A DNA stretch of 30,624 nt from Escherichia phage 186: the sequence record NC_001317.1. One strand, 5' to 3'. A program made the translations under genes and the position numbers. Shown here piece after piece: positions 164 to 26,747 of this stretch (position 1 is the first letter of the stretch; each line of letters begins with the position of its first letter). Below the pieces are notes generated by a model. The model worked only from the letters and a program-made list of their open reading frames with translations, ran no database searches and was not told the DNA's origin.

Positions 164-185
164 AAAAAGCCGCCATGCTGGCGGC
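164..185 (-). terminator. Rho-independent terminator downstream of the portal gene
   Basis: 7-bp GC-rich stem GCCGCCA/TGGCGGC with a 3-nt loop, followed on the minus strand by TTTTT, directly after the portal stop codon. Confidence 0.6.
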
Positions 186-195
186 TTGAGAGGGA

Positions 196-6739: not shown

Positions 6740-7246
6740 ATGACGACAGTGATACTGAACCAGCCCGACGAACCGCAGGACGTACCGGGCGTGGTGATTC
6801 CCGCACCGGAGACGGGCGGTGCAGTGATTAAAAACACGTTCTTTTTCCCTGATGTGGATCCGAAGCGCGTGCGCGAACTGATGCGCCTTGAGCAGACGGT
6901 TTCCGATGCGCGCCTGCGCAATGCCATCAAGACCGGCATGGCCGAGACCAATGCGGAGCTTTACGACTACCGGCTGCGCCAGACTGCCGCCGGGTTTAAG
7001 CAACTGGCCGACGTGCCTGCCGAGGAAATCGACGGCGAGAATGTACGTGTTTTCCACTATCTGAGTGCTGTGACGGCAATGGCAACCGCCACCCTGTATG
7101 AGCGCTATCGCGGCGTTGAGGCCACCGGCAAAGGTGACAAAAAAGCCGACAGCGTGGAAACCACCATTGATGACCTGTGGCGGGATATGCGCTGGTCAGT
7201 TGCGCGTCTGCAGGACAAGCCGCGCTGCATTGTGGGGCAGCTCTGA
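6740..7246 (+). CDS. Head completion/stabilization protein (P2 gpL homolog)
   Basis: 168-aa ORF in conserved position after the small terminase; SD GAGG upstream. Confidence 0.85.
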   Translation: MTTVILNQPDEPQDVPGVVIPAPETGGAVIKNTFFFPDVDPKRVRELMRLEQTVSDARLRNAIKTGMAETNAELYDYRLRQTAAGFKQLADVPAEEIDGENVRVFHYLSAVTAMATATLYERYRGVEATGKGDKKADSVETTIDDLWRDMRWSVARLQDKPRCIVGQL

Positions 7247-14182: not shown

Positions 14183-15361
14183 ATGAGTGATTTTCACCAC
14201 GGCACGAAGGTCATCGAAATAAATGACGGTACGCGTGTTATTTCCACGGTCGCAACCGCAATCGTCGGCATGGTCTGGACAGCCAGCGATGCGGATGCCG
14301 AGACATTTCCCCTCAACGAGCCGGTACTGATTACCAATGTGCAGAGCGCCATTGCGAAAGCCGGTAAAAAAGGCACTCTGTCAGCTTCCCTGCAGGCCAT
14401 CGCCGACCAGTCAAAGCCTGTCACCGTTGTCGTGCGCGTTGCCGAAGGTACCGGAGACGATGCAGAAGCGCAGACCACGTCCAACATTATCGGCGGCACG
14501 GATGAGAACGGTAAATACACCGGTATCAAGGCGCTGCTAACTGCCGAAGCGGTCACCGGCGTTAAGCCGCGCATTCTCGGTGTGCCGGGTCTCGATACGC
14601 AGGAAGTCGCAACCGCACTTGCATCGGTCTGTATCAGCCTGCGTGCGTTTGGTTACGTCAGCGCATGGGGCTGTAAGACCATTTCCGAGGCGATGGCATA
14701 TCGCGAGAATTTCAGCCAGCGCGAGCTGATGGTCATCTGGCCTGATTTCCTCGCATGGGATACCACCGCGAACGCCACCGCCACGGCATACGCCACCGCC
14801 CGCGCACTCGGTCTGCGTGCCTACATCGACCAGACTATCGGCTGGCACAAAACGCTGTCTAACGTTGGCGTGCAGGGCGTTACCGGCATCAGCGCCTCAG
14901 TCTTTTGGGATTTGCAGGCATCCGGCACAGATGCTGACCTGCTCAACGAGGCCGGAGTCACCACGCTGGTGCGCAAGGATGGTTTCCGTTTTTGGGGGAA
15001 CCGCACATGCTCTGATGACCCGCTTTTCCTGTTTGAGAACTACACCCGAACCGCGCAGGTGCTGGCCGACACAATGGCTGAGGCGCACATGTGGGCGGTC
15101 GATAAGCCCATCACCGCATCGCTCATCCGTGACATTGTCGACGGCATTAACGCCAAATTCCGCGAGCTGAAATCAAATGGCTACATCGTGGACGGTGAAT
15201 GCTGGTTCGACGAGGAATCGAACGATAAGGAAACCCTCAAGGCCGGGAAACTGTATATCGACTACGACTATACACCGGTTCCCCCACTGGAAAGCCTGAC
15301 CCTGCGCCAGCGTATCACCGATAAATATCTGGTGAATCTGGCTGAATCGGTCAACAGCTAA
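14183..15361 (+). CDS. Tail sheath protein (P2 gpFI homolog)
   Basis: 392-aa ORF, SD ACGGAG upstream, in conserved position before the tube gene. Confidence 0.92.
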   Translation: MSDFHHGTKVIEINDGTRVISTVATAIVGMVWTASDADAETFPLNEPVLITNVQSAIAKAGKKGTLSASLQAIADQSKPVTVVVRVAEGTGDDAEAQTTSNIIGGTDENGKYTGIKALLTAEAVTGVKPRILGVPGLDTQEVATALASVCISLRAFGYVSAWGCKTISEAMAYRENFSQRELMVIWPDFLAWDTTANATATAYATARALGLRAYIDQTIGWHKTLSNVGVQGVTGISASVFWDLQASGTDADLLNEAGVTTLVRKDGFRFWGNRTCSDDPLFLFENYTRTAQVLADTMAEAHMWAVDKPITASLIRDIVDGINAKFRELKSNGYIVDGECWFDEESNDKETLKAGKLYIDYDYTPVPPLESLTLRQRITDKYLVNLAESVNS

Positions 15362-15376
15362 GGAGCCTGAAACAAC

Positions 15377-15898
15377 ATGGCACTACCCCGCAAACTTAAA
15401 TATCTGAACATGTTCAATGACGGCCTTAGCTACATGGGCGTTGTTGAATCCGTGACGCTGCCGAAGCTGACCCGCAAGCTCGAAAACTATCGCGGCGGCG
15501 GTATGAATGGCGCTGCAGCGATTGACCTCGGCCTCGACGATGATGCGCTTACTGTCGAATGGTCTGTCGGTGGCCTGCCTGATGTGGCGCTGTGGGCGCA
15601 GTATGCCGCGCCGGGGGCTGATGCCGTGCCGCTGCGTTTTGCTGGCTCTTACCAGCGTGACGACACTGGCGAAATCGTTGCGGTCGAGGTGGTCATGCGT
15701 GGCCGTCATAAAGAAATCGACGGCGGCGAAAATAAGCAGGGTGAAAATACCTCGACCAAACTGTCGACCGTTTGCACCTATTACCGCCTCACGATTGATG
15801 GTAGCGACATTATCGAAATCGACACCGTCAACATGGTCGAGAAGGTGAACGGCGTCGACCGTCTGGAACAGCACCGCCGCGCAATCGGGCTGCTGTAA
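15377..15898 (+). CDS. Tail tube protein (P2 gpFII homolog)
   Basis: 173-aa ORF with a strong SD (TAAGGAG); size and position as P2 gpFII. Confidence 0.92.
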   Translation: MALPRKLKYLNMFNDGLSYMGVVESVTLPKLTRKLENYRGGGMNGAAAIDLGLDDDALTVEWSVGGLPDVALWAQYAAPGADAVPLRFAGSYQRDDTGEIVAVEVVMRGRHKEIDGGENKQGENTSTKLSTVCTYYRLTIDGSDIIEIDTVNMVEKVNGVDRLEQHRRAIGLL

Positions 15899-15906
15899 TT
15901 CCCTGA

Positions 15907-15927
15907 CCGGTCAGCACTGCTGGCCGG
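15907..15927 (+). terminator. Stem-loop after the tube gene (possible attenuator or partial terminator)
   Basis: CCGGTCAGC-ACT-GCTGGCCGG hairpin (9-bp stem, one G:U) followed by UUAUUA. Confidence 0.35.
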
Positions 15928-15959
15928 TTATTACCCCCATTCAGAGCAGAGAAAAAATC

Positions 15960-16295
15960 ATGGCAAAAGCACCACGCAAAACCCCTGAATTTATTGATAC
16001 GGCTGGCAATGAAATTGACACCGTAAACCCGAATGTCGTGACCCTCGACAAGCCGATTAAACGCGCCGGTCAGACAATTGAAAAGGTCACGCTGATTGAA
16101 CCGAACGCAGGCACCCTGCGCGGCGTCAGTCTGGCGGCGGTGGCGCAGTCCGAGGTCGATGCGCTGATTAAGGTGCTGCCCCGCATGACCTACCCGGCAC
16201 TCACCACGCAGGAGCTCACCGCAATGAACCTGCCCGATATGCTGTCGCTGGCCGCTAAGGTGATTGGTTTTTTGTCACCGGCTTCGGCGGAATAG
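15960..16295 (+). CDS. Tail assembly chaperone E (P2 gpE homolog)
   Basis: 111-aa ORF ending ...KVIGFLSPASAE; contains the slippery run T TTT TTG at 16268..16274 near its 3' end. Confidence 0.85.
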   Translation: MAKAPRKTPEFIDTAGNEIDTVNPNVVTLDKPIKRAGQTIEKVTLIEPNAGTLRGVSLAAVAQSEVDALIKVLPRMTYPALTTQELTAMNLPDMLSLAAKVIGFLSPASAE

Positions 16296-16447
16296 ACTTC
16301 CCGCCCGGCCTGTCGACCGATGACCTGATGGCGGATATCGCAGTGATATTCCACTGGCCGCCATCAGAGCTCTATTCCCTGAGCCTGACCGAGCTCATCA
16401 CATGGCGCGAAAAGGCGCTGCAGCGTAGCGGAAACCACAATGAGTAA
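15960..16447 (+). CDS. Tail assembly chaperone E+E' fusion made by programmed -1 frameshift at TTTTTTG (about 16268..16274)
   Basis: After a -1 slip the reading frame continues as ...FVTGFGGIDFPPGLSTDDLMADIAVIFHWPPSELYSLSLTELITWREKALQRSGNHNE, ending at TAA 16445..16447 overlapping the tape-measure start. This matches the conserved P2 E/E' arrangement upstream of the tape measure gene. Confidence 0.8.
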
Positions 16448-18878
16448 TAACCTGAGGCTTGAGGTATTGCTGAAAGCGGTCGACCAGGCGACCCGACCGC
16501 TTAAATCCATCCAGACCGCGAGTAAAAGCCTGTCGGGCGATATTCGCGACACACAAAAAGGGCTGCGTGACCTGAATGGTCAGGCGTCGAAAATCGACGG
16601 CTTTCGTAAGGCAAGCGCGCAACTGGCCGTAACCAGTCAGGCGCTTGATAAGGCGAAACGCGAGGCCGGTGAGCTGGCCGTGCAGTTTAAAAACACCACC
16701 AATCCGACCCGCGCGCAGGCGCAGGCACTTGAAGCGGCAAGGCGTGCCGCCTCTGAGTTGCAGACGAAATACAACAGCCTGAGAACGTCGGTACAGCGCC
16801 AGCGCTCCGAGCTGATGCAGGCCGGTATTAATACCCGCACTCTCTCTGCAGATGAGCGTCGGCTCAAAACCTCCATCAGCGAAACAACTGCGCACGTTAA
16901 TCGACAACGTGAGGCACTGGCGCGCGTCAGTGCGCAGCAGGCGAAATTAAGCCGGGTGAAAGAGCGATATAAATCAGGCAAGGAGCTTGCCGGTAACATG
17001 GCCGCAGCAGGCGCTGCGGGGTCGGTATCGCGACACGGAACGATGGCCGGGGTTAAATTACTGATGCCCGGTTATGACTTTACGCAGAAAAATTCCGAGC
17101 TGCAGGCTGTGCTCGGGGTCGATAAGCAGTCGCCAGAAATGCAGGCGTTACGCAAACAGGCGCGCCACGTCGGCGACAATACTGCAGCCTCTGCAGATGA
17201 TGCAGCAAGCGCGCAAATCATCATTGCGAAAAGCGGCGGTGATGCAGCTGCCATTCAGGCGCGACGCCGAGTCACGCTGAATATGGCGCTGTCAAACCGG
17301 CGCACGATGGAGGAAAACGCAGCGCTGCTGACCGGGATGAAATCAGCGTTTCAGCTTTCAAACGACAAGATTGCGCACATTGGCGACGTTCTCTCGATGA
17401 CGATGAACAAAACCGCCGCCGATTTTGACGGACTGAGCGACGCGCTGACCTATGCCGCACCGGTGGCAAAAAATGCCGGGGTGAGCATCGAGCAAACCGC
17501 CGCAATGGTCGGTGCACTGCACGATGCCAAAATCACCGGGTCAATGGCGGGCACGGGTAGCCGCGCCATTCTCAGCCGCCTGCAGCTCCCACCGGAAAAA
17601 GCGTTTGAGGCCATTAAGGAGCTCGGCGTCAAAACGTCAGACAGCAAGGGGAACACGCGCCCGATATTCTCCATCCTGAAAGAAATGCAGCGCAGCTTTG
17701 AGAAAAACAACCTCGGGACAAGCCAGCGCGGCGAGTATATGAAAACCATTTTCGGCGAGGAGGCCAGCTCGGCGGCGGCGGTACTGATGGAAGCCGCCTC
17801 AAGCGGCAAACTTGACCGGCTCACCGCTGCGTTTAAAGCCTCGGACGGTAAAACCGAGGAACTGGTTAAGGTTATGCAGGATAACCTCGGCGGCGACTTT
17901 AAAGAGTTCCAGTCTGCTTATGAGGCAGTCGGTACTGACCTTTTTGACCAGCAAGAGGGCTCGCTGCGTAAACTCACCCAAACCGCCACGCAATACGTGT
18001 TAAAGCTCGACGGCTGGATCCAGAAGAACAAAGGGCTGGCGACAACCATTGGCATCATCGCCGGTGGCGCTCTAGCTCTGATTGGTATCATCGGCGGTAT
18101 TGGCCTCGTTGCGTGGCCGGTTGTTATGGGGATTAACGCCATTATCGCTGCTGCTGGCGTGCTGGGTACGGTCTTTACTGTTACCGGTAGTGCCATTGTG
18201 ACCGCACTTGGCGCGATTACCTGGCCGATTGTCGCAGTGGGGGCGGCTATTGTGGCTGGTGCGTTACTCATCCGTAAATATTGGGAGCCCATCAGCGCAT
18301 TTTTCTCGGGGGTGATTGAGGGCATCATGAGTGCCTTTGCACCGGTCGCAGAAATGTTCGCTCCACTGGCACCCATTTTTGACGGTCTCGGTGAGAAACT
18401 GCGCGGCGTCTGGCAGTGGTTTAAAGACCTGATAGCACCGGTCAAAGCCACGCAGGAAACGCTCGATAGCTGCAAAAATGTCGGCGTCATATTTGGTCAG
18501 GCGCTGGCCTCTGCTTTGATGCGTCCGCTCAATGTATTTAACAAGTTGCGCAGCGGTGTCGACTGGCTTCTCGAAAAGCTCGGTATCATCAACAAAGAGT
18601 CAGACAACCTCGACCAGACTGCCGCCAAAACCAACGCCGCCACGCAGGGTAATTCCTACATCCCGGCAACCAGCACATATGGCGGCTATCAAGCTTACCA
18701 GCCAGTTACCGCACCGGCGGGACGCTCTTACATTGACCAGAGTAAAAGCGAATACAAAATCACTCTGCCGGGAGGTGCTGCGCCGGGGCATCAGCTTGAC
18801 AGACAGCTACGCGACACGCTCGAACAGATTGAGCGCGAAAAGCGTGCGCGTCAGCGTGCCAGTATGAGCCATGACTGA
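16440..18878 (+). CDS. Tail tape measure protein (P2 gpT homolog)
   Basis: 812-aa ORF with an Ala-rich coiled-coil N-terminal half and hydrophobic Gly/Ala/Ile-rich segments (LATTIGIIAGGALALIGIIGGIGLVAWPVVMGINAIIAAAG); follows E/E'. Confidence 0.93.
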   Translation: MSNNLRLEVLLKAVDQATRPLKSIQTASKSLSGDIRDTQKGLRDLNGQASKIDGFRKASAQLAVTSQALDKAKREAGELAVQFKNTTNPTRAQAQALEAARRAASELQTKYNSLRTSVQRQRSELMQAGINTRTLSADERRLKTSISETTAHVNRQREALARVSAQQAKLSRVKERYKSGKELAGNMAAAGAAGSVSRHGTMAGVKLLMPGYDFTQKNSELQAVLGVDKQSPEMQALRKQARHVGDNTAASADDAASAQIIIAKSGGDAAAIQARRRVTLNMALSNRRTMEENAALLTGMKSAFQLSNDKIAHIGDVLSMTMNKTAADFDGLSDALTYAAPVAKNAGVSIEQTAAMVGALHDAKITGSMAGTGSRAILSRLQLPPEKAFEAIKELGVKTSDSKGNTRPIFSILKEMQRSFEKNNLGTSQRGEYMKTIFGEEASSAAAVLMEAASSGKLDRLTAAFKASDGKTEELVKVMQDNLGGDFKEFQSAYEAVGTDLFDQQEGSLRKLTQTATQYVLKLDGWIQKNKGLATTIGIIAGGALALIGIIGGIGLVAWPVVMGINAIIAAAGVLGTVFTVTGSAIVTALGAITWPIVAVGAAIVAGALLIRKYWEPISAFFSGVIEGIMSAFAPVAEMFAPLAPIFDGLGEKLRGVWQWFKDLIAPVKATQETLDSCKNVGVIFGQALASALMRPLNVFNKLRSGVDWLLEKLGIINKESDNLDQTAAKTNAATQGNSYIPATSTYGGYQAYQPVTAPAGRSYIDQSKSEYKITLPGGAAPGHQLDRQLRDTLEQIEREKRARQRASMSHD

Positions 18879-18890
18879 GAGGAATAAACG

Positions 18891-19376
18891 ATGATGCTTG
18901 CGCTTGGAATGTTTGTGTTTGAACGTCGCACCCTGCCTTATCAGTCGATGCAGCACTCGAAGGATTACCGCTGGGCGTCTAATGACCGGGTGGGTAAGCC
19001 GCCTGCTTATCAGTTTCTCGGCGAGGGGGAAACGTCGATACAGCTTGCCGGTACACTGTACCCAGCCATCACCGGCGGCTGGATCTCACTAAAGGCTGTA
19101 GAGGTAATGGCTAACGAGGGCAGAGCGTGGCCGTTGATTGAGGGAACTGGAAACATTTTAGGGATGTATATCGTCGATAAGGTGTCGACCACGCACGCCG
19201 AGTTTTTCAGCGACGGCGCTGCCAGAAAGATTGATTTCACCCTTTCGCTTAAACGGGTCGACGAATCACTGACGGCAATGTTTGGCGACCTGAATAAGCA
19301 GGCCAGCGAGCTTCTAGGCTCTGCCGGAAATCTGACTGATAAGCTGCAGAGTGCGCTCGGAGGACTGACCGCATGA
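18891..19376 (+). CDS. Tail protein (P2 gpU homolog)
   Basis: 161-aa ORF, SD GAGAGGA upstream; conserved position after the tape measure. Confidence 0.85.
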   Translation: MMLALGMFVFERRTLPYQSMQHSKDYRWASNDRVGKPPAYQFLGEGETSIQLAGTLYPAITGGWISLKAVEVMANEGRAWPLIEGTGNILGMYIVDKVSTTHAEFFSDGAARKIDFTLSLKRVDESLTAMFGDLNKQASELLGSAGNLTDKLQSALGGLTA

Positions 19377-20542
19377 TTACGGGCATGACTATTGACGCCG
19401 GAACTAGCCTTGCACCGGCATTTATGTTAACGCTGAACAGCCAGGACATTACCAGCAATTTTAGTGACCGGCTGATTTCTCTCACCATGACAGACAACCG
19501 GGGCTTTGAGGCTGACCAGCTCGACATTGAGCTCGACGACACCGACGGCAAAGTCGAATTACCACTGCGCGGGGCGGTGCTGACGTTGTGGCTTGGCTGG
19601 CAGGGTTCGGCGCTTCTGAATAAGGGCGATTTCACGGTCGATGAGATTGAGCACCGGGGCGCGCCTGATATCCTGACCATCCGCGCGCGTAGTGCAGACT
19701 TTCGCGGAACGCTCAATTCACGGCGTGAAGAATCATGGCACGATACTACCATCGGTGAGTTGGTCAGCACCATTGCAAAGCGCAATAAACTGACGGCCAG
19801 TGTCGCGGATTCACTGAAAAAAATTCCGGTACCGCATATCGACCAGTCGCAGGAGTCCGACGCCGTATTTCTGACCCGACTGGCTGACCGCAATGGGGCG
19901 ACGGTGTCAGTGAAAGCGGGGAAACTCCTGTTTCTGAAAGCCGGTAGTGCGATGACGGCCAGCGGCAAGCCCGTCCCGCAAATGACACTAACTCGCAACG
20001 ATGGTGACCGTCATCAGTTTGCTATTGCCGACCGTGGGGCTTACACCGGCGTAACCGCAAAATGGTTGCACACCAAAGACCCGAAGCCGCAAAAGCAGAA
20101 AGTAACACTGAAACGCAAGCCAAAAGAGAAGCACCTGCGCGCACTGGAGCACCCGAAAGCAAAGCCAGTCAGCAAAAAGACAAAGGCCAAAAAAGAGCCG
20201 GAAGCGCGCGAGGGTGAGTATATGGCCGGTGAGGCCGATAACGTGCTGGCGCTGACGACGGTCTACGCTTCTAAGGCGCAGGCGATGCGTGCCGCTCAGG
20301 CTAAGTGGGATAAGCTGCAGCGAGGCGTTGCGGAGTTTTCAATTACGCTGGCGCTTGGTAGGGCTGATTTATTCCCTGAGACACCGGTGCGCGTATCAGG
20401 CTTTAAGCGCGTCATAGATGAGCAGGCATGGTTAATCAGTAAGGTAACTCACAATCTGAATAATAGCGGCTTCACGACGGGCTTAGAGCTTGAGGTTAAA
20501 CTCTCTGATGTGGAGTACAACGCGGAATCGGATGATGAATAA
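19373..20542 (+). CDS. Tail protein (P2 gpD homolog)
   Basis: 389-aa ORF overlapping the gpU stop, SD GGAGGA upstream; last gene of the late tail operon. Basic KPKPQKQKVTLKRKPKEKH region. Confidence 0.88.
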   Translation: MITGMTIDAGTSLAPAFMLTLNSQDITSNFSDRLISLTMTDNRGFEADQLDIELDDTDGKVELPLRGAVLTLWLGWQGSALLNKGDFTVDEIEHRGAPDILTIRARSADFRGTLNSRREESWHDTTIGELVSTIAKRNKLTASVADSLKKIPVPHIDQSQESDAVFLTRLADRNGATVSVKAGKLLFLKAGSAMTASGKPVPQMTLTRNDGDRHQFAIADRGAYTGVTAKWLHTKDPKPQKQKVTLKRKPKEKHLRALEHPKAKPVSKKTKAKKEPEAREGEYMAGEADNVLALTTVYASKAQAMRAAQAKWDKLQRGVAEFSITLALGRADLFPETPVRVSGFKRVIDEQAWLISKVTHNLNNSGFTTGLELEVKLSDVEYNAESDDE

Positions 20543-20547
20543 AATGT

Positions 20548-20564
20548 ATTCACAAAAAGTGAAT
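20548..20564. promoter_or_regulatory. Inverted repeat ATTCAC-N5-GTGAAT in the promoter region of the late activator gene (putative repressor operator)
   Basis: ATTCACAAAAAGTGAAT 45 bp upstream of the activator start; the same dyad recurs at 22725..22741 and 23404..23420. Confidence 0.5.
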
Positions 20565-20608
20565 TTATGATTATCATTTATTCACGAATTGAGAATAAAG
20601 GGTGGGTT

Positions 20609-20827
20609 ATGTTTCATTGTCCGAAGTGCCATCATGCCGCACATGCGCGAACAAGCCGCTATCTAACCGAAAACACGAAAGAACGCTACCACCAGTGCCA
20701 GAACATCAACTGTAGTTGTACGTTTATGACAATGGAAACGATAGAGCGCTTTATTGTTACTCCGGGAGCCATTGACCCGGCACCGCCTCACCCGACTGTC
20801 GGTGGTCAGCGGCCATTGTGGCTCTGA
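20609..20827 (+). CDS. B: Ogr/B-family zinc-finger late-gene transcriptional activator
   Basis: ORF-track start 20567 replaced by the ATG at 20609, giving a 72-aa protein MFHCPKCHHAAHARTSRYLTENTKERYHQCQNINCSCTF... with the C-x2-C...C-x4-C zinc-binding pattern of P2 Ogr. Symbol B follows my recollection of phage 186 nomenclature. Confidence 0.9.
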   Translation: MFHCPKCHHAAHARTSRYLTENTKERYHQCQNINCSCTFMTMETIERFIVTPGAIDPAPPHPTVGGQRPLWL

Positions 20828-20844
20828 TAAATTTCCGCTAAATG

Positions 20845-20866
20845 CCCGCCGCGTGCGGGTTTTTTT
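20845..20866 (+). terminator. Rho-independent terminator after the late activator gene
   Basis: CCCGC-CGCGT-GCGGG hairpin followed by TTTTTTT, 18 nt after the stop codon. Confidence 0.65.
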
Positions 20867-20932
20867 ATGCACTCAGGAAAGTGGCGGTAAAAAATCCACC
20901 GCCATTCTATCGCCACTCGAAAACGAGGCAAC

Positions 20933-20957
20933 AAAAAGGCCACTCGAGAGAGTGGCC
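20933..20957 (-). terminator. Minus-strand hairpin plus U-run just beyond the att core (terminator for leftward int-operon transcripts; sib-like position)
   Basis: Perfect 8-bp stem GGCCACTC/GAGTGGCC with a 4-nt loop; on the minus strand it is followed by TTTTT. Lies on the far side of the att core from int. Confidence 0.45.
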
Positions 20958-20984
20958 TAACTGTATGTATTTACTACTTAAATT

Positions 20985-21030
20985 TGGTGGCCCCTGCTGG
21001 ACTTGAACCAGCGACCAAGCGATTATGAGT
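20985..21030 (-). other. attP core: 46-nt segment identical in form to the 3' end (anticodon loop to CCA) of a tRNA-Ile(CAU)-type gene
   Basis: The minus strand reads ACTCATAATCGCTTGGTCGCTGGTTCAAGTCCAGCAGGGGCCACCA: anticodon loop with CAT, T-arm GGTTCAAGTCC, acceptor 3' strand and CCA. No 5' half of the tRNA is present, so this is an attachment-site fragment, not a tRNA gene. Confidence 0.8.
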
Positions 21031-21156
21031 TCCTACAAGAACAACCGAAAATCAATAGTATGCGTTATTTATCATTGACATAGATTGCCATTGTTTGCCA
21101 ATAATTACCTATTATTCGCCATTTCTACCGCCACTTTATCGCCATTCTATTATCTG

Positions 21157-21408
21157 TTACTCAGAACCATCGCCGACATAGGTTCCATCAGGTGCGAGAT
21201 GATATCTTCCACCAACATAAGTCCCATCTGGGGCAAGTGTTGGGCGGCCAGCAACATAACTTCCATTTGGCGCTAAGCGTGGAACGCCACCGACATAAGT
21301 TCCATCGGGTGCAAGGCGTGGTGCTCCTCCTCCAACATAAGTCCCATTAGGGGCAAGCATAGGTTGTCCGTAAACATAGGTACCATCAGGTGCTAATCGA
21401 ACTGACAT
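21157..21408 (-). CDS. Small tandem-repeat protein (six roughly 13-aa LAPDGTYVGG-type repeats), function unknown
   Basis: 83-aa ORF with a strong SD (GGAGG, 4-nt spacer) 14 nt downstream of the integrase stop. Protein is MSVR followed by repeats LAPDGTYVYGQPM / LAPNGTYVGGGAPR / LAPDGTYVGGVPR / LAPNGSYVAGRPT / LAPDGTYVGGRYH / LAPDGTYVGDGSE. Confidence 0.6.
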   Translation of the reverse strand: MSVRLAPDGTYVYGQPMLAPNGTYVGGGAPRLAPDGTYVGGVPRLAPNGSYVAGRPTLAPDGTYVGGRYHLAPDGTYVGDGSE

Positions 21409-21422
21409 ACAACCTCCATAAC

Positions 21423-22433
21423 TTATTTGCTGTTAGTAATGTGAACTAAAGGATTTAGTTTAACTGCATCCTCTAAATGGTCGGGTGCAAAGTGCGCATA
21501 TCGCATGGTCATTTTTATATCTGTATGGCCGAGTACGCGCTGCAACACCAAAATATTACCGCCATTCATCATAAAGTGACTAGCGAAGGTGTGACGTAAA
21601 ACGTGGGTAAGTTGTCCTGCCGGTAGTTCGATACCTGTTCTTTCCAAAGCTGACCGGAACGCGCCATAACAATCACTGAACAACCGGCCCTTTTTATCAT
21701 CAGGCAGAGACTCATAGAGCTCTTTGCTGATTGGGACGGTGCGATTTTTTCTACCTTTCGTGTTGGTGTATGTGATTTTGTATTTCGCGAGTTGGCTTTT
21801 TCTCAGACTCTCGGCCTCAGACCACCGTGCGCCAGTTGCGAGACAGATTCTTACCACGGTTTCTAAATCAGGGTGGTCATGTCGGTTACACTCTCCGAGC
21901 AGTTGCGAAATTTGGTCGTGAGTTAGCCAAGTCATTTCCATTTCTTCTGTGCGGAATGGGCGCATATTTTTTAGTGGGTTTTCACCCTTCCATTCTCCGA
22001 GGCGGTTTAGCTCATTGAACACCGCCCGGAAGTAGGCCAGCTCAAGATTAAGCGTGCGAGGCGATACCTCTTTCACTCTGTTTGAACGGGCATACTCACC
22101 TTTTAACCGTTTTTCTCGGTAGCGGGAAAACATCTGCGCATCGAAATCGCGTGCGAGTGGTTCGCCCATACACTCAAAAGCATGGTGCATGGCTAACTGG
22201 CGTTTCAAACCATCTTTCAGTGTAATGCCATGAGCGCTATACCATGAATCAACCAGCTCTTTTAACGTGCGCCTGTCTTCCTTTTCTTCCTGCCACGGGT
22301 TTTGAACGGTGTACTGCTCAAACGCCAGAGCCTCGCCTTTAGTAGCGAATTTCTTTCTGATACGTTTGCCTTTTGCACCGTTTGGGTAGAGTTCACAAAT
22401 CCAACCGCCAGCCGGATTTTTACGGACGGTCAT
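21423..22433 (-). CDS. int: Tyrosine integrase
   Basis: 336 aa with tyrosine-recombinase motifs: LATGARWSEAESL (Arg), HVLRHTFASHF (His-x-x-Arg), LGHTDIKMTMRYAHF (His and catalytic Tyr). Adjacent to attP; its start overlaps the repressor stop. Confidence 0.95.
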   Translation of the reverse strand: MTVRKNPAGGWICELYPNGAKGKRIRKKFATKGEALAFEQYTVQNPWQEEKEDRRTLKELVDSWYSAHGITLKDGLKRQLAMHHAFECMGEPLARDFDAQMFSRYREKRLKGEYARSNRVKEVSPRTLNLELAYFRAVFNELNRLGEWKGENPLKNMRPFRTEEMEMTWLTHDQISQLLGECNRHDHPDLETVVRICLATGARWSEAESLRKSQLAKYKITYTNTKGRKNRTVPISKELYESLPDDKKGRLFSDCYGAFRSALERTGIELPAGQLTHVLRHTFASHFMMNGGNILVLQRVLGHTDIKMTMRYAHFAPDHLEDAVKLNPLVHITNSK

Positions 22434-23011
22434 TAGTTAACCTCGCTGTATACACCCACCACACGCCCCAACGTTTTAATATCATCAATGCCGCATTCGA
22501 AAGGAACCTTCCCGCCTGCAACATGTAGTTTTCTACCCGGTAGTTTTGTTAACTCTCGAATGCTTATTGCTCCCTCAATGTCGACTAGCCATAAGCCGTC
22601 AGACAATGATGCTTGCTTGTCCACAAAATAAATTTTCCCCTCGGAACGGATAGCCATCCCATCTGTGAGCGGTTTTGTGAAAAATTGGGCATCAACACTC
22701 AATTGTTTATCGGATTTGAGGATTTCTTCACTTAATGTGAATCCCTCAATCCTTTTTGCGTCGCTCGATTCTCTGTTATTTACAAATGCTTCTCCTTCTC
22801 CGGTAAGTAACCACTGGAGATTAGCACCTGTTTCAAGGGCACAGTGAGCCGCAAAGTCATAGGAGATAGCGCCTCGGGTGTACCTGTTTGACAATGAGCT
22901 GGACGCGATATCGAAGTGGTTAGCTAATTGAATTTTCTGCGAAAATCCGTACGCCTCGCAGATGCGGTCAAGTACATCCACGTTGCTCCATCCTAAAGAA
23001 TCTATTCTCAT
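22433..23011 (-). CDS. cI: Lysogeny (immunity) repressor, 186 CI-type
   Basis: 192-aa ORF MRIDSLGWSNVDVLDRICEAYGFSQKIQLANHFDIASSSLSNRYTRGAISYDFAAHCALETGANLQWLLTGEG...: N-terminal HTH domain plus C-terminal domain. Divergent from the early operon and co-transcribed with int. Size and sequence match my recollection of phage 186 CI (P2 C is only about 99 aa). Confidence 0.88.
   Translation of the reverse strand: MRIDSLGWSNVDVLDRICEAYGFSQKIQLANHFDIASSSLSNRYTRGAISYDFAAHCALETGANLQWLLTGEGEAFVNNRESSDAKRIEGFTLSEEILKSDKQLSVDAQFFTKPLTDGMAIRSEGKIYFVDKQASLSDGLWLVDIEGAISIRELTKLPGRKLHVAGGKVPFECGIDDIKTLGRVVGVYSEVN
22725..22741. promoter_or_regulatory. Inverted repeat CTTCAC-N5-GTGAAT inside the repressor gene (putative flanking operator, left)
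   Basis: CTTCACTTAATGTGAAT, about 370 bp left of the switch region; same dyad as at the late-activator promoter and at 23404..23420. Confidence 0.45.
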
Positions 23012-23140
23012 TTCGATAAAACCTATTTACTATCTCTCAATTGGGAGATATATTTTGGCTAAACCCACGCAATTGATGGCAAGTGTTGGCAAACAGAGTC
23101 AAATCAATTGCAAACTTTGGCTAATAGGGAATCATGCAAT
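23012..23140. promoter_or_regulatory. Lysis/lysogeny switch region: divergent promoters for cI (leftward) and apl/cII (rightward) with operator-like dyads
   Basis: 129-bp intergenic region containing the palindrome ATCTC-TCAATTGG-GAGAT (23022..23039), three CAATTG hexamers (about 23029, 23067, 23096) and a direct repeat TTTGGCTAA (about 23044 and 23114). Confidence 0.6.
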
Positions 23141-23404
23141 ATGGCTTCTGAAATCGCAATCATCAAAGTGCCTGCACCTATCGTTACTCTGCAACAATTC
23201 GCAGAGCTTGAGGGTGTTTCTGAACGCACCGCCTACCGCTGGACAACCGGCGACAACCCTTGTGTACCAATCGAACCCCGCACAATCCGTAAAGGCTGCA
23301 AGAAAGCAGGTGGCCCGATTCGCATTTATTACGCACGCTGGAAAGAAGAGCAGTTGCGTAAGGCGTTGGGACATTCCCGTTTTCAACTCGTCATCGGTGC
23401 TTAA
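23141..23404 (+). CDS. apl: Apl/Cox-type excisionase and transcriptional regulator
   Basis: The ORF track starts at a TTG (23108); the ATG at 23141 (SD AGGGA) gives an 87-aa protein MASEIAIIKVPAPIVTLQQFAELEGVSERTAYRWTTG... with an Xis-like HTH. First gene of the rightward early operon. Confidence 0.85.
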   Translation: MASEIAIIKVPAPIVTLQQFAELEGVSERTAYRWTTGDNPCVPIEPRTIRKGCKKAGGPIRIYYARWKEEQLRKALGHSRFQLVIGA

Positions 23405-23420
23405 TTCACTTTATGTGAAT
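23404..23420. promoter_or_regulatory. Inverted repeat ATTCAC-N5-GTGAAT between apl and cII (putative flanking operator, right)
   Basis: ATTCACTTTATGTGAAT, about 310 bp right of the switch region. Confidence 0.45.
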
Positions 23421-23434
23421 TGTAAGGATGCAAC

Positions 23435-23944
23435 ATGTTTGATTTTCAGGTTTCCAAACATCCCCACTATGACGAAGCGTGCCGGGCTTTTGCGCAGCGT
23501 CACAACATGGCGAAGCTGGCCGAGCGTGCGGGTATGAATGTTCAAACGTTACGTAACAAGCTCAACCCAGAACAGCCTCACCAGTTCACGCCGCCTGAAT
23601 TGTGGCTGCTGACTGACCTGACCGAAGACTCAACCCTCGTTGATGGTTTTCTGGCGCAGATTCATTGTCTGCCATGCGTGCCGGTTAATGAGCTGGCTAA
23701 AGATAAATTGCAGTCTTACGTCATGCGCGCAATGAGTGAACTCGGTGAACTGGCGAGCGGTGCGGTATCTGATGAGCGTCTGACCACTGCCCGTAAGCAC
23801 AACATGATTGAAAGCGTTAACTCCGGCATTCGCATGTTGTCATTGTCGGCTCTGGCGCTGCATGCACGTCTGCAGACTAATCCCGCTATGTCGAGCGTGG
23901 TCGATACCATGAGCGGTATTGGCGCATCGTTTGGTCTGATTTGA
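23435..23944 (+). CDS. cII: CII-type transcriptional activator for establishment of lysogeny
   Basis: 169-aa ORF, SD AAGGA upstream, with an HTH (NMAKLAERAGMNVQTLRNKLN). Position after apl, and size matches my recollection of 186 CII. Confidence 0.85.
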   Translation: MFDFQVSKHPHYDEACRAFAQRHNMAKLAERAGMNVQTLRNKLNPEQPHQFTPPELWLLTDLTEDSTLVDGFLAQIHCLPCVPVNELAKDKLQSYVMRAMSELGELASGAVSDERLTTARKHNMIESVNSGIRMLSLSALALHARLQTNPAMSSVVDTMSGIGASFGLI

Positions 23945-23951
23945 GGTGCGT

Positions 23952-24179
23952 ATGCTGAAAAGTGAACCGTCATTTGCGTCTCTGCTCGTTAAGCAAAGCC
24001 CCGGTATGCATTACGGCCACGGCTGGATCGCAGGTAAGGACGGCAAGCGCTGGCACCCGTGCCGCTCACAGTCCGAATTATTAAAAGGGCTGAAAACAAA
24101 GTCGCCGAAATCGTCAGGTTTTTTAATTATTCGTATTGTCCACTTTGTAATTAAAGGAGTGAAACATGTCACGCGATGA
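23952..24179 (+). CDS. Small early protein (possibly 186 Fil-like)
   Basis: The ORF track begins at a GTG (23946); the ATG at 23952 with SD GAGGTG gives 75 aa. The Fil assignment rests only on gene order as I recall it for 186. Confidence 0.55.
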   Translation: MLKSEPSFASLLVKQSPGMHYGHGWIAGKDGKRWHPCRSQSELLKGLKTKSPKSSGFLIIRIVHFVIKGVKHVTR

Positions 24180-24366
24180 ATTAAGAATTGTTTTGGGTGC
24201 CATGATTCCAAATATGGAGGAAGGTTTTGAAATTAAAACCCGCGACGGCGCAATACTTCGCGTTGACCCTGAGTGGGAGTGCTGCAAAGAATTTAAGGAT
24301 GGATTAAAAGCCGAAATCATCAAGCAGTTAAAAAGCAAACCTGCTGTTGTATTTGGATATAGTTAA
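24166..24366 (+). CDS. Small early protein (possibly 186 Dhr-like)
   Basis: 66-aa ORF with a strong SD (AAGGAG); overlaps the previous ORF by 14 nt. Function assignment by position only. Confidence 0.55.
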   Translation: MSRDELRIVLGAMIPNMEEGFEIKTRDGAILRVDPEWECCKEFKDGLKAEIIKQLKSKPAVVFGYS

Positions 24367-24432
24367 TTAATTAAACGTAATTACTTGGCGTAAACCCGCC
24401 GGGCATTCTTTTGCCAAAAAACAGGAGGATAT

Positions 24433-24666
24433 ATGAGTCGAACTATTTATTTATCAACGCCGAGTGGTGCTGGCGACCACTTGCTGGAGTCTTTGTTTAA
24501 AGAAGCCAAAAAAGAAGAGCGCAAAGACCGCCGTCTCGCCGTTTCAATCCGTCTCGAAGATCTGGCCGTTCACATTACCAATTCAGATATGACAGGCAAA
24601 GAAGCGGCCGAGCTACTGCGCCGCGAAGCCACTCGCTTTGAGAACGAATCACAGGAGCTTCACTAA
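24433..24666 (+). CDS. Hypothetical early protein
   Basis: 77-aa ORF with a strong SD (AGGAGG); charged, helical-looking sequence with no recognisable motif. Confidence 0.6.
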   Translation: MSRTIYLSTPSGAGDHLLESLFKEAKKEERKDRRLAVSIRLEDLAVHITNSDMTGKEAAELLRREATRFENESQELH

Positions 24667-24893
24667 TGGCCGACGCAATGGATTTAGCACAACTGCGCGA
24701 GCAGGAAGACCGCGAACGCCACATAAGCAACGCGCGCAGCCGTCGCCATGAGGTTTCTGCATTTATCTGTGAGGAATGCGATGCACCTATCCCGGAAGCG
24801 CGCCGCCGAGCCATACCGGGCGTGCAGTGCTGCGTTACCTGTCAGGAAATCTTAGAGCTGAAAAGTAAACATTATAACGGAGGTGCTTTATGA
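24666..24893 (+). CDS. TraR/DksA-family C4 zinc-finger protein
   Basis: 75-aa ORF whose ATG overlaps the previous stop; CEEC-x17-CCVTC zinc-finger pattern (FICEECDAPIPEARRRAIPGVQCCVTCQE), typical of phage TraR-like proteins. Confidence 0.7.
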   Translation: MADAMDLAQLREQEDRERHISNARSRRHEVSAFICEECDAPIPEARRRAIPGVQCCVTCQEILELKSKHYNGGAL

Positions 24894-25474
24894 GCATTAC
24901 CAATGCAACTATTAGCCAGCGTGCAAAAAAATGGCTTGAAGATGACCGTATATTTATTGACACCGAAACTACGGGTTTGGGTGATGATGCGGAAATAGTA
25001 GAAATCTGTTTAATAGATAGCGCTGGTTTTATCATGCTAAATACATTGGTTAAACCAACTAAACCAATTCCAGCAGAGGCTACGGCCATTCATGGAATAA
25101 CTGATGAAATGGTTATGTATGCGCCAACGTGGAAAGATATTCACGGCGCAGTAGCTTCTTTATTTTTTGAGTATGGCTTTGTTATTTATAACGCCGATTA
25201 CGACACAAGACTTATATATCAAACTGCGAAATTATATGGGCTTGAGAATGACGGCTTTTGTTATTTTTTAAATGAGCGTTCGGCCTGCGCCATGATGCTA
25301 TATGCAGAGTATCGCGGCGAGCCAGGGCGATTTAAAGGTTATAAATGGCACAAATTAGTTGATGCCGCTGCACATGAAGGGGTTAGCGTTGAAGGAAAGG
25401 CACACCGTGCATTAGCAGATTGCCGGATGACTCTTGGCATTATCGACGCTTTGGCAAAAGGCGGTGCAGCATGA
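24890..25474 (+). CDS. DnaQ-like (DEDDh) 3'-5' exonuclease
   Basis: 194 aa with Exo I (FIDTETTGL), Exo II (VIYNADYD) and Exo III (HRALADC) motifs; translationally coupled; AT-rich. Confidence 0.8.
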   Translation: MSITNATISQRAKKWLEDDRIFIDTETTGLGDDAEIVEICLIDSAGFIMLNTLVKPTKPIPAEATAIHGITDEMVMYAPTWKDIHGAVASLFFEYGFVIYNADYDTRLIYQTAKLYGLENDGFCYFLNERSACAMMLYAEYRGEPGRFKGYKWHKLVDAAAHEGVSVEGKAHRALADCRMTLGIIDALAKGGAA

Positions 25475-25746
25475 GTATCCGTATCGAAATAGGTGATAAA
25501 TGGGTAATCACCAGCGACCAATATCAATTCATCCTGAATGAAAAAAAAGTCGTTAAGACCGGCAATAAAGCTGGCGAGGAATGGCTCGACACCATCGGTT
25601 ATTACCCGAAGATTAATCAGCTCATTTCTGGTCTGGTACATCACCACATTCATACGGCAATGATTATTTCCCTTAGTGCAATGGCAGAGGAAATAGAGAA
25701 GTTATCTTTTATCTGTGAAGAAGCATTTAAGGCGGTTAAAAAATGA
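25471..25746 (+). CDS. Hypothetical early protein
   Basis: The ATG at 25471 overlapping the exonuclease stop gives 91 aa (MSIRIEIGDKWVITSDQYQFILNEKK...); no recognisable motif. Confidence 0.55.
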   Translation: MSIRIEIGDKWVITSDQYQFILNEKKVVKTGNKAGEEWLDTIGYYPKINQLISGLVHHHIHTAMIISLSAMAEEIEKLSFICEEAFKAVKK

Positions 25747-26747
25747 TTGATTCCCGCTGCTTTGCTGAAAGCACAATAAATATTGTTTCTGTTTCTGGTG
25801 GAAAGGACAGCCTTGCTCAATGGATTCTTGCGGTAGAGAACGACGTACCGCGCACCACTGTTTTTGCAGATACCGGGCATGAGCATTCCCAAACAATGGA
25901 GTATCTGGATTATCTTGAATCCAGACTCGGCCCGGTTATTCGAGTGAAAGCCGATTTTACTCGGCGGATTGAAGGCAAACGGAAATTCATTGCTGAAAAA
26001 TGGCCTGTCTCTCTCGTTGAAGAATGCGGAATGTCTCATGAGCAGGCTGCAGAACGAATCGCAAAGGCACTGGAAATCCTTAAGCCAACCGGTAATCCGT
26101 TTCTCGATTTGTGCATGTGGAAAGGACGGTTCCCGAGCACGAAAGCAAGGTTTTGTTCACTGGAACTGAAACATGACTCAGTACGGGACAAGATTGTACT
26201 CCCAGCGCTGGAGAAATATGACGAAGTAATTCTATGGCAGGGTGTTCGTGCTCAGGAGTCACCAGCCCGCGCTGCGTTACCTATGTGGGAGGAGGATGCA
26301 GATAATACCCCCGGTTTGCATGTGTATCGCCCAATTCTTAACTGGACACATGAAGACGTATTTGCCTTAGCTAAACGACACGGAATTAAACCGAACCCAC
26401 TCTATCAGCAAGGTTGTAGCAGAGTTGGCTGCATGCCATGTATTCATGCAAGAAAATCTGAGCTGGCAGAGATTTTTGCTCGCTGGCCGGAGGAGATTGC
26501 GCGCGTTGCAGAGTGGGAACGTCTTGTTGCTGCCTGTTCACGTCGGGGAAACTCAACATTTTTCCCTTCGACTCACGACCCGCGGCGAGCAGAAAAACGT
26601 ATTGAAGTTGTTACCGTAGAAGAATATGGGATAGCTTCATATCGTGACTGGGCGATGACTACGCGTGGCGGTTCTCAGTACGATTTGCTCGCTGCTACAA
26701 ACGACAAAACTGTGTGCAGTAGCGTTTATGCCGGTGTATGTGAATGA
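25743..26747 (+). CDS. PAPS reductase-like / PP-loop ATP-pyrophosphatase family protein (DndC-like fold)
   Basis: 334 aa with the N-terminal PP-loop SVSGGKDS and a C-terminal Cys cluster (GCSRVGCMPC); translationally coupled upstream and with gene A downstream. Confidence 0.8.
   Translation: MIDSRCFAESTINIVSVSGGKDSLAQWILAVENDVPRTTVFADTGHEHSQTMEYLDYLESRLGPVIRVKADFTRRIEGKRKFIAEKWPVSLVEECGMSHEQAAERIAKALEILKPTGNPFLDLCMWKGRFPSTKARFCSLELKHDSVRDKIVLPALEKYDEVILWQGVRAQESPARAALPMWEEDADNTPGLHVYRPILNWTHEDVFALAKRHGIKPNPLYQQGCSRVGCMPCIHARKSELAEIFARWPEEIARVAEWERLVAACSRRGNSTFFPSTHDPRRAEKRIEVVTVEEYGIASYRDWAMTTRGGSQYDLLAATNDKTVCSSVYAGVCE

Follow-up and report, generated by a model that had tools for sequence, protein, structure and literature searches.

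The attachment site of Escherichia phage 186 contains, between its core and the convergent late genes, a short GC-rich inverted repeat that reads on the int strand as a hairpin followed by a run of U, and the question raised by this locus is what such an element does inside attP. The original prediction, made from the sequence of the window (the whole stretch of 30,624 nucleotides of NC_001317.1 that was analysed), described a terminator-like hairpin on the int strand beyond att that is split from int by integration, and likened this arrangement to the retroregulatory sib element of lambda. The window is that of a 186-type P2-like phage of the genus Eganvirus, and the closest phages are other members of this genus, namely Erwinia phage EtG, a set of Yersinia YpM phages, Salmonella BIS20, and PHB48.

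The features of the region are listed in Table 1. On the minus strand the order is cI, int, an 83-aa repeat ORF, the P-arm repeats, a 45-nt part of tRNA-Ile2, a 26-nt spacer, the hairpin and the P'-arm repeats, beyond which lies the B/ogr terminator in the opposite orientation. The overlap of the cI stop with the int start is consistent with an operon of these two genes, and the 83-aa ORF would be co-transcribed with int as far as the hairpin. This ORF is made almost wholly of about seven LAPDGTYVGG-type repeats and exhibits a weak match to PD40 repeats in Pfam and none in PHROGs. The place that it occupies between int and the P arm is a slot for variable cargo: EtG, the YpM phages, BIS20, PHB48 and ENT90 have nothing there, and the prophage of E. 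coli EC-1639 has a 301-aa ORF.

Table 1. Features of the attachment region and its neighbours, with the corresponding terminator of PsP3 in the last line. Positions are those of the window unless a locus is named.
Feature	Position	Strand	Remarks
GPD tail hub	19373-20542	+	
B/ogr late-gene activator, Ogr/Delta zinc finger	20609-20827	+	PF04606, E = 2.4e-21; convergent with int and tRNA
B/ogr intrinsic terminator (predicted), GCCCGC-CGCGU-GCGGGU + U7	20844-20867	+	consensus scan; conserved in relatives
P' arm repeats, GAGTGGCGATAGAATGGCGGTGGA on the minus strand	20878-20918	.	inverted copy at 20878-20893; conserved in relatives
U-rich tail UUUUGUUG, directly 3' of the stem	20929-20936	-	equals UUUUUGUU if the closing A-U pair is counted as tail
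AAAAA	20933-20937	+	read directly
Predicted terminator hairpin, 9-bp stem AGGCCACUC / GAGUGGCCU, tetraloop UCUC	20937-20958	-	8-bp GC-rich core 20938-20957
Stem arm GGCCACTC	20938-20945	+	read directly
Loop GAGA	20946-20949	+	read directly
Stem arm GAGTGGCC	20950-20957	+	read directly
AT-rich spacer, 26 nt, between tRNA 3' end and hairpin	20959-20984	-	
att core, 45-nt identity with tRNA-Ile2(CAU) over its 3' part (anticodon loop CTCATAA through CCA)	20985-21029	-	K-12 ileX
P arm copy of the P' arm repeat, int side of core	21122-21147	.	
83-aa repeat ORF	21157-21408	-	LAPDGTYVGG-type repeats; not in relatives
int, tyrosine integrase	21423-22433	-	
cI repressor	22433-23011	-	stop overlaps int start
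PsP3 int-strand terminator (predicted), AAGGGGTTGG...CCAGCCCCTT TTTT	L133 2139-2165	-	

The attP of 186 has IHF sites, Int core and arm sites, and five Apl operators (PMC7498355), and the phage integrates at ileY and ileX (PMC3448106). The tRNA segment of the window represents only the 3' part of the gene, and ARAGORN identified no complete tRNA in the window. The repeats on either side of the core comprise a 24-nt direct repeat shared by the P' arm and 21124-21147, together with the inverted repeats I1 and I2, and those of the P' arm are probable Int arm-type sites. In most relatives the spacer carries an IHF-consensus-like motif, AATCA(T/G)NNNNTTA, which has a weaker match in 186 and is a putative IHF site. 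The hairpin stem begins 26 nt past the terminal A of the tRNA. Because it lies between the core and the probable P' arm repeats, the hairpin is placed inside attP and past the core; the earlier description, which put it across the att core from int and the repeat ORF, therefore holds, with the refinement that it does not leave the attachment site. Across the P' arm it faces the plus-strand B/ogr terminator, and since two unidirectional terminators bracket the P' arm repeats (20844-20958), this stretch would be transcribed from neither side.

Direct reading of the minus strand gives GGCCACUC-UCUC-GAGUGGCC followed by the U-rich UUUUUGUU, and positions 20938-20957 thus form a perfect 8-bp GC-rich stem with a tetraloop whose 3' neighbour on that strand is TTTTTGTT. 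The perfect stem, the tetraloop and the U5 that had been reported for 20933-20957 are exact, and a ninth pair (A20937-T20958) is possible, which gives a 9-bp stem. A consensus scan of 15000-26000 ranked the hairpin first among terminator-like sites (9 pairs, 6 of them GC, loop of 4) and gave no second minus-strand site of this kind from the int stop (21423) to the hairpin, which is the first one after cI, int and the 83-aa ORF. The stem of 9 bp with 6 GC pairs and a tetraloop falls within the range of intrinsic terminators (GC-rich, approximately 5-14 bp, short loop), the U-tract follows the stem immediately on the minus strand, and neither direct reading nor the scan gave a T-run after the stem on the plus strand. 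The description of the element as terminator-like on the int strand is thereby borne out at the level of prediction, with all sequence features of an intrinsic terminator present. It folds independently in both 121-nt and 301-nt contexts, with a free energy of -16.3 kcal/mol. Perfect stems that reach 9 bp or more, include 6 or more GC pairs and are followed by a T-rich tail occur at two sites in the 30.6-kb window (20958..20937 and 187..167) and never in 200 dinucleotide-preserving shuffles of it, which rules out a chance origin of the hairpin.

The second of these sites, on the minus strand at 167-187 (AAGCCGCCAGCATGGCGGCTT TTTCATAC), is the only other perfect 9-bp GC-rich hairpin with a T-rich tail in the window. 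Assignment to a known RNA family was rejected, as Rfam searched at a permissive threshold returned only sub-threshold matches that reflect the shape of a terminator (25 bits for Phe_leader, whose gathering score is 55, and 21 for isrK, whose gathering score is 50). The literature covered on int 3' ends of 186 and P2, on sib and on replacement terminators, a body that does not extend to the older 186 papers, contains nothing specific to this hairpin.

Comparison with related sequences indicates that the pairing itself is maintained. The seven inner pairs do not vary among eight att regions, and the outer pair alternates between G-C and A-T, while the loop is different in almost every lineage. 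Across genomes at least 61 distinct variants of the hairpin were identified, with 43 loops and 25 stems, and inner stem positions alternate between TC/GA, CTT/AAG, CC/GG, CAT/ATG and TTC/GAA. In an alignment of 53 variants, 96.2% of the cells are standard pairs and 6 of the 9 pairs exhibit changes on both sides (31 cells), counts that could be inflated by the shared ancestry of the surrounding cassette and the relatedness of the sequences. The observed pairing values were matched by none of 500 shuffles, and registers slid by 1-3 columns gave only 25-60% pairing. The T-run is nearly invariant in relatives, reading TTTT(T)GTT, and the outer GCCAC/GTGGC pairs are conserved beyond the needs of structure. 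The exact pattern of 186 was found only in EC-1639 among the loci examined, because most relatives have AAGCC where 186 has AGGCC. The pairing pattern combined with a one-sided U-tract is a terminator-like pairing constraint. Judged by anatomy, pairing and U-tract, the hairpin is a conserved Rho-independent terminator, at which RNA polymerase is predicted to halt.

The same inverted repeat could in principle act as DNA within attP, as a protein site (an Int arm half-site or the site of an accessory factor), a cruciform or a spacer of fixed length, and not as an RNA terminator at all. Its position between the core and the P' arm repeats agrees with this, as do its fixed distance of about 26 nt from the tRNA end, the unusual conservation of the outer GCCAC/GTGGC pairs, and a 3' arm, GAGTGGC, whose 7 nt are also those with which the arm repeat GAGTGGCGAT begins. 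A DNA-level function nevertheless appears improbable, since compensatory stem changes and free loop variation point to a constraint on pairing more than to a sequence-specific site, an invariant T-run confined to one strand is a feature of terminators with no role in a cruciform, and scars that lack any element still keep the hairpin. The same spacer and hairpin also precede three unrelated repeat families, which are of the TGGCG type at 18 loci, GTGTCGC at 9 and C-rich at 10. The hairpin thus does not covary with the arm-repeat family and does not track the arm specificity of the integrase. The specific possibility of an Int half-site, suggested by the shared GAGTGGC, was ruled out by the occurrence of the same hairpin beside unrelated arm repeats.

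The arrangement after integration was examined at loci selected by an exact 45-nt match in a search of one genome per species across the Enterobacterales with the exact 45-mer, which returned at least 120 loci that were sorted using ARAGORN, tblastn and a six-frame ORF search. For E. coli EC-1639, similarity to the window extends from B/ogr through the hairpin and ends at 21030 under an annotated complete tRNA-Ile. The order at this B/ogr end is complete tRNA-Ile, spacer, hairpin, B/ogr and D, and the int end, about 30 kb away, has a partial tRNA copy only, with the 3' end …CCAGCAAGGGCCACCA. The tRNA 3' end and downstream flank at the int end are those of the unoccupied K-12 ileY locus. From these two ends it follows that the T-arm adjoining the hairpin is derived from the phage and that crossover takes place near the anticodon loop.

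This pattern extends well beyond one strain. At least 12 loci represent the B/ogr end of a lysogen, with a complete tRNA-Ile2, the hairpin at about +26, and then homologues of B and D on the opposite strand. At the int ends (L018, L055, L075, L110), cI and Int lie upstream on the same strand, followed by a partial tRNA and a different hairpin 5-9 nt after CCA, which is a homologue of the K-12 ileX terminator. Both prophage ends are present on one contig in Citrobacter portucalensis (L056/L110), the Int of which is 97% identical to that of 186, in Raoultella lignicola (L039/L055) and in Erwinia psidii (L099/L075). The claim that integration splits the hairpin from int is confirmed by EC-1639, where the hairpin is at the B/ogr end approximately 30 kb from int, and by these paired ends of Citrobacter, Raoultella and Erwinia. 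In EC-1639, and in at least 12 lysogens overall, the phage stem-loop is directly downstream of the rebuilt complete tRNA, after which it is the first terminator-like site, and the native tRNA terminator is found at the distal (int) end of the prophages. As the hairpin behind int is replaced at ileX-type sites by the native tRNA terminator, integration there mostly trades one terminator for another.

The phage-borne 3' parts of the tRNA differ from each other by compensatory changes in the T-stem (GCTGG/CCAGC, ACCCG/CGGGT, ACTGG/CCAGT and GTTGG/CCAAC, in a comparison of 20985-21029 of the window with L001, L126 and L002). These changes imply that the segment is maintained as a working part of a tRNA, and that lysogens express hybrid tRNAs with a phage-specific T-arm.

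Native tRNA-Ile2 genes, including K-12 ileX, carry a terminator of their own 5-9 nt after CCA. The matches listed include 94 complete tRNA-Ile2 genes, of which 36 are followed by such a native terminator, 44 have the phage-type hairpin instead (at about +26), and 12 are without a nearby intrinsic terminator. The native flank of K-12 ileY also has no int-strand (minus) intrinsic terminator within approximately 360 nt and, together with those 12 genes, indicates that a terminator close to this tRNA is not indispensable. The 3' flank of ileY (L124, approximately 1150-1262) contains an inverted repeat, TGGCGGT...ACGCCA, that resembles a 186-type P' arm and may be an old attachment-site scar. The K-12 ileX terminator and the attP hairpin are both GC-rich hairpins with a U-run soon after CCA on the same strand, and their stabilities are similar (-19.4 and -16.3 kcal/mol, respectively). 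The ileX terminator differs in its unrelated sequence, its 12-bp stem, its start 8-11 nt rather than 26 nt after CCA, and the absence of an AT-rich spacer.

Traces of lost elements carry the same arrangement. At three loci (L046, L057, L062) a scar beside unrelated host genes still includes the tRNA, the spacer, the hairpin and part of the P' arm, which is truncated, and a 2-kb remnant (L119) likewise retains all four. Loci of this type could be read the other way, with the spacer and hairpin as the natural 3' flank of a tRNA-Ile2 paralogue in the host, captured by phages and without a function for them. Many flanked complete tRNA-Ile2 genes indeed have no recognisable phage gene in the 2.5-6.8 kb downstream (L027, L049, L065-L067, L084, L086, L096). 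Arm-like repeat motifs still follow the flank in most of these cases, however, and the flank is present in virion genomes of phages of several genera (EtG, the YpM phages, BIS20, PHB48, ENT90). At the paired junctions, moreover, the native terminator has moved to the opposite end. A captured flank without function is therefore very unlikely, and an ancient host origin would in any case be compatible with a present function.

The explanation preferred here, which is probably correct, is that the hairpin is a Rho-independent terminator in the P' arm of attP that serves the int operon in the free genome and, in the lysogen, serves the rebuilt tRNA-Ile2 gene and shields the genes beyond it. Such a terminator would act on one direction of transcription only, that of int and the tRNA. 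In a genome that is free or has just entered the cell, it would end the cI-int-ORF83 transcripts and would spare B/ogr and the tail genes antisense transcription from the int operon. At integration, crossover near the anticodon loop would join the 5' half of the host tRNA-Ile2 to the phage-borne 3' part, and the host's own terminator would shift to the far (int) end of the prophage, about 30 kb off. The phage hairpin would become the terminator of the rebuilt tRNA-Ile2 gene, and ending this gene is most likely its function after integration; it would also shield the convergent B and late genes of the lysogen from the tRNA promoter. The roles in the free genome and in the lysogen share one strand and cannot be separated by sequence analysis. 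The tRNA-linked role is supported by the division of the tRNA-Ile2 genes listed (36 of 94 native, 44 of 94 phage-type), by the scars, and by the contrast with P2 and the experiments on ICEKp1 described below.

The hairpin may also be part of something more general. A plausible reading, put forward tentatively, treats the 3' part of the tRNA, the 26-nt spacer and the hairpin as one conserved unit, a portable cassette that is used by at least three arm-site families and persists as the terminator of the gene after the element is lost. An element-type terminator follows nearly half of the complete tRNA-Ile2 genes of the Enterobacterales (44/94, among the matches listed). Four loci (L027, L067, L084, L121) have tRNA-Ile2, spacer and hairpin followed by C-rich repeats, and three others (L050, L060, L096) have the same series followed by GTGTCGC repeats. 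No homologue of any window protein was found within several kb of the C-rich and GTGTCGC loci, and because their repeats are also unrelated to the 186-type TGGCG repeats, other families of elements are suggested to share the cassette.

A longer version of the hairpin is present in Lelliottia sp. WAP21 (L073). After a complete tRNA-Ile2 at 6831, the spacer leads into a perfect hairpin of 21 bp with a free energy of -29.8 kcal/mol and the arms AATCATACAACAAACCATTCC / GGGATGGTTTGTTGTATGATT, and the version at L104 has 23 bp. The predicted L073 hairpin, unlike that of 186, would be long enough for an RNase III substrate.

Negative retroregulation of the lambda sib type would have read-through int RNA form an RNase III site at the hairpin, with degradation from the 3' end in the free phage and relief of int upon integration. 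The geometry invites this comparison, as lambda sib/tI likewise has attP between itself and int, lies on the int strand, includes a terminator hairpin with a U-tract, and is also uncoupled from int by integration; the lysogen junctions confirm that the 186 hairpin is past the att core as seen from int and is uncoupled in the same way. The sib duplex of lambda is an RNase III substrate. Its pairing is interrupted, in runs of 6+12+3 pairs, and requires transcription to continue past the U-tract; the same folding tool gave about 21 paired positions for it, including bases beyond that tract. The attP hairpin, by contrast, remains an isolated, plain 9 bp in the 301-nt read-through fold, with no extension toward a duplex of about 20 bp, and is inside attP between the core and the arm sites. 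A further difference from lambda is that the host tRNA terminator replaces the hairpin 3' of int after integration; int in ileX-type lysogens gains another hairpin of similar strength, and its 3' end is not bare. A stable 3' hairpin normally protects the upstream mRNA and does not destabilise it, and no N-like antitermination system is known in 186/P2-type phages. A sib mechanism in 186 is accordingly extremely unlikely. Of the original sib-like proposal the geometry stands, and the mechanism is unsupported because the extended duplex that defines it was tested and is absent. The tRNA context, which the original prediction did not take into account, would give a simpler reason for the conservation of the hairpin than a sib-like role.

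An effect of integration on int of the opposite sign to sib could operate alongside the preferred terminator explanation, though this too is unlikely. Here the hairpin would give the cI-int-cargo mRNA of the free genome a defined and protected 3' end, and in an ileY-type lysogen the transcript would run into host DNA and be less stable or ended by Rho, which would lower Int in the prophage. The element 3' of int after integration depends on the site, being a native terminator of similar strength at ileX-type sites and none within approximately 360 nt at ileY, so the 3' end of the int operon would differ between the free and integrated states at ileY. The junction at the int end of EC-1639 joins int exactly to this ileY flank, which on the minus strand is without an intrinsic terminator over that distance in K-12, and ileY is a site of 186 alongside ileX (PMC3448106). 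Most of the int-end junctions sampled, on the other hand, have a strong native terminator 5-9 nt after the partial tRNA (L018, L055, L075, L110), and the difference at the int 3' end vanishes there. Excision of 186 is moreover controlled mainly by Apl and not by the supply of Int. In the ileY case the hairpin would probably favour expression of int in the free genome.

Related elements help to place the hairpin of 186. P2 (NC_001895) shares with 186 the order ogr, attP, int and repressor and the same types of site, namely Int arm sites, an IHF site, a core and excisionase sites. Unlike 186, it has a single bidirectional hairpin, the ogr/F-operon terminator, which lies outside attP, and no int-strand terminator was found between the core and the arm site of P2 (NC_001895). 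The integration target of P2 is not a tRNA gene (PMC3448106). PsP3 resembles 186 in having a core region, an int-strand terminator (Table 1), ATGGCGG arm repeats and an ogr terminator, but the core sequence before its hairpin does not resemble a tRNA 3' end, and a dedicated terminator after the core is thus not strictly tied to tRNA targets.

The closest experimental parallel is ICEKp1, which inserts at tRNA-Asn. As in 186, its integration into the 3' part of the tRNA shifts the native Rho-independent terminator to the far end, and stem-loops of the element are located directly after the rebuilt tRNA (PMC13023037). Experiments with ICEKp1 have shown that the tRNA-Asn promoter then reads into the element and that the stem-loops of the element attenuate this transcription (PMC13023037). 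The two elements differ in what lies behind the tRNA. In ICEKp1, int adjoins the tRNA and is co-directional with it, and the stem-loops only attenuate transcription, so that the tRNA promoter drives int. In 186 the late genes at the tRNA end are convergent and int is at the other end. With convergent late genes and the full anatomy of a terminator, insulation would be expected in 186 and not promoter capture.

The attractive analogy with lambda sib is thereby corrected as unsupported, and the hairpin of 186 appears to be an ordinary intrinsic terminator in an informative position, with no new kind of regulation. This accounts for a conserved non-coding element in a well-studied attachment site. 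It would also explain the position of the hairpin, where transcription from both the rebuilt tRNA and the int operon is predicted to halt before colliding with the late-gene activator, which is convergent. An element that integrates into a tRNA gene faces a strong tRNA promoter once the native terminator has been displaced; ICEKp1 uses this promoter to drive int, and the 186 family appears to block it. If the cassette proposed above is real, mobile elements would have widely and durably rewritten the 3' end and the terminator of the AUA-decoding tRNA gene.
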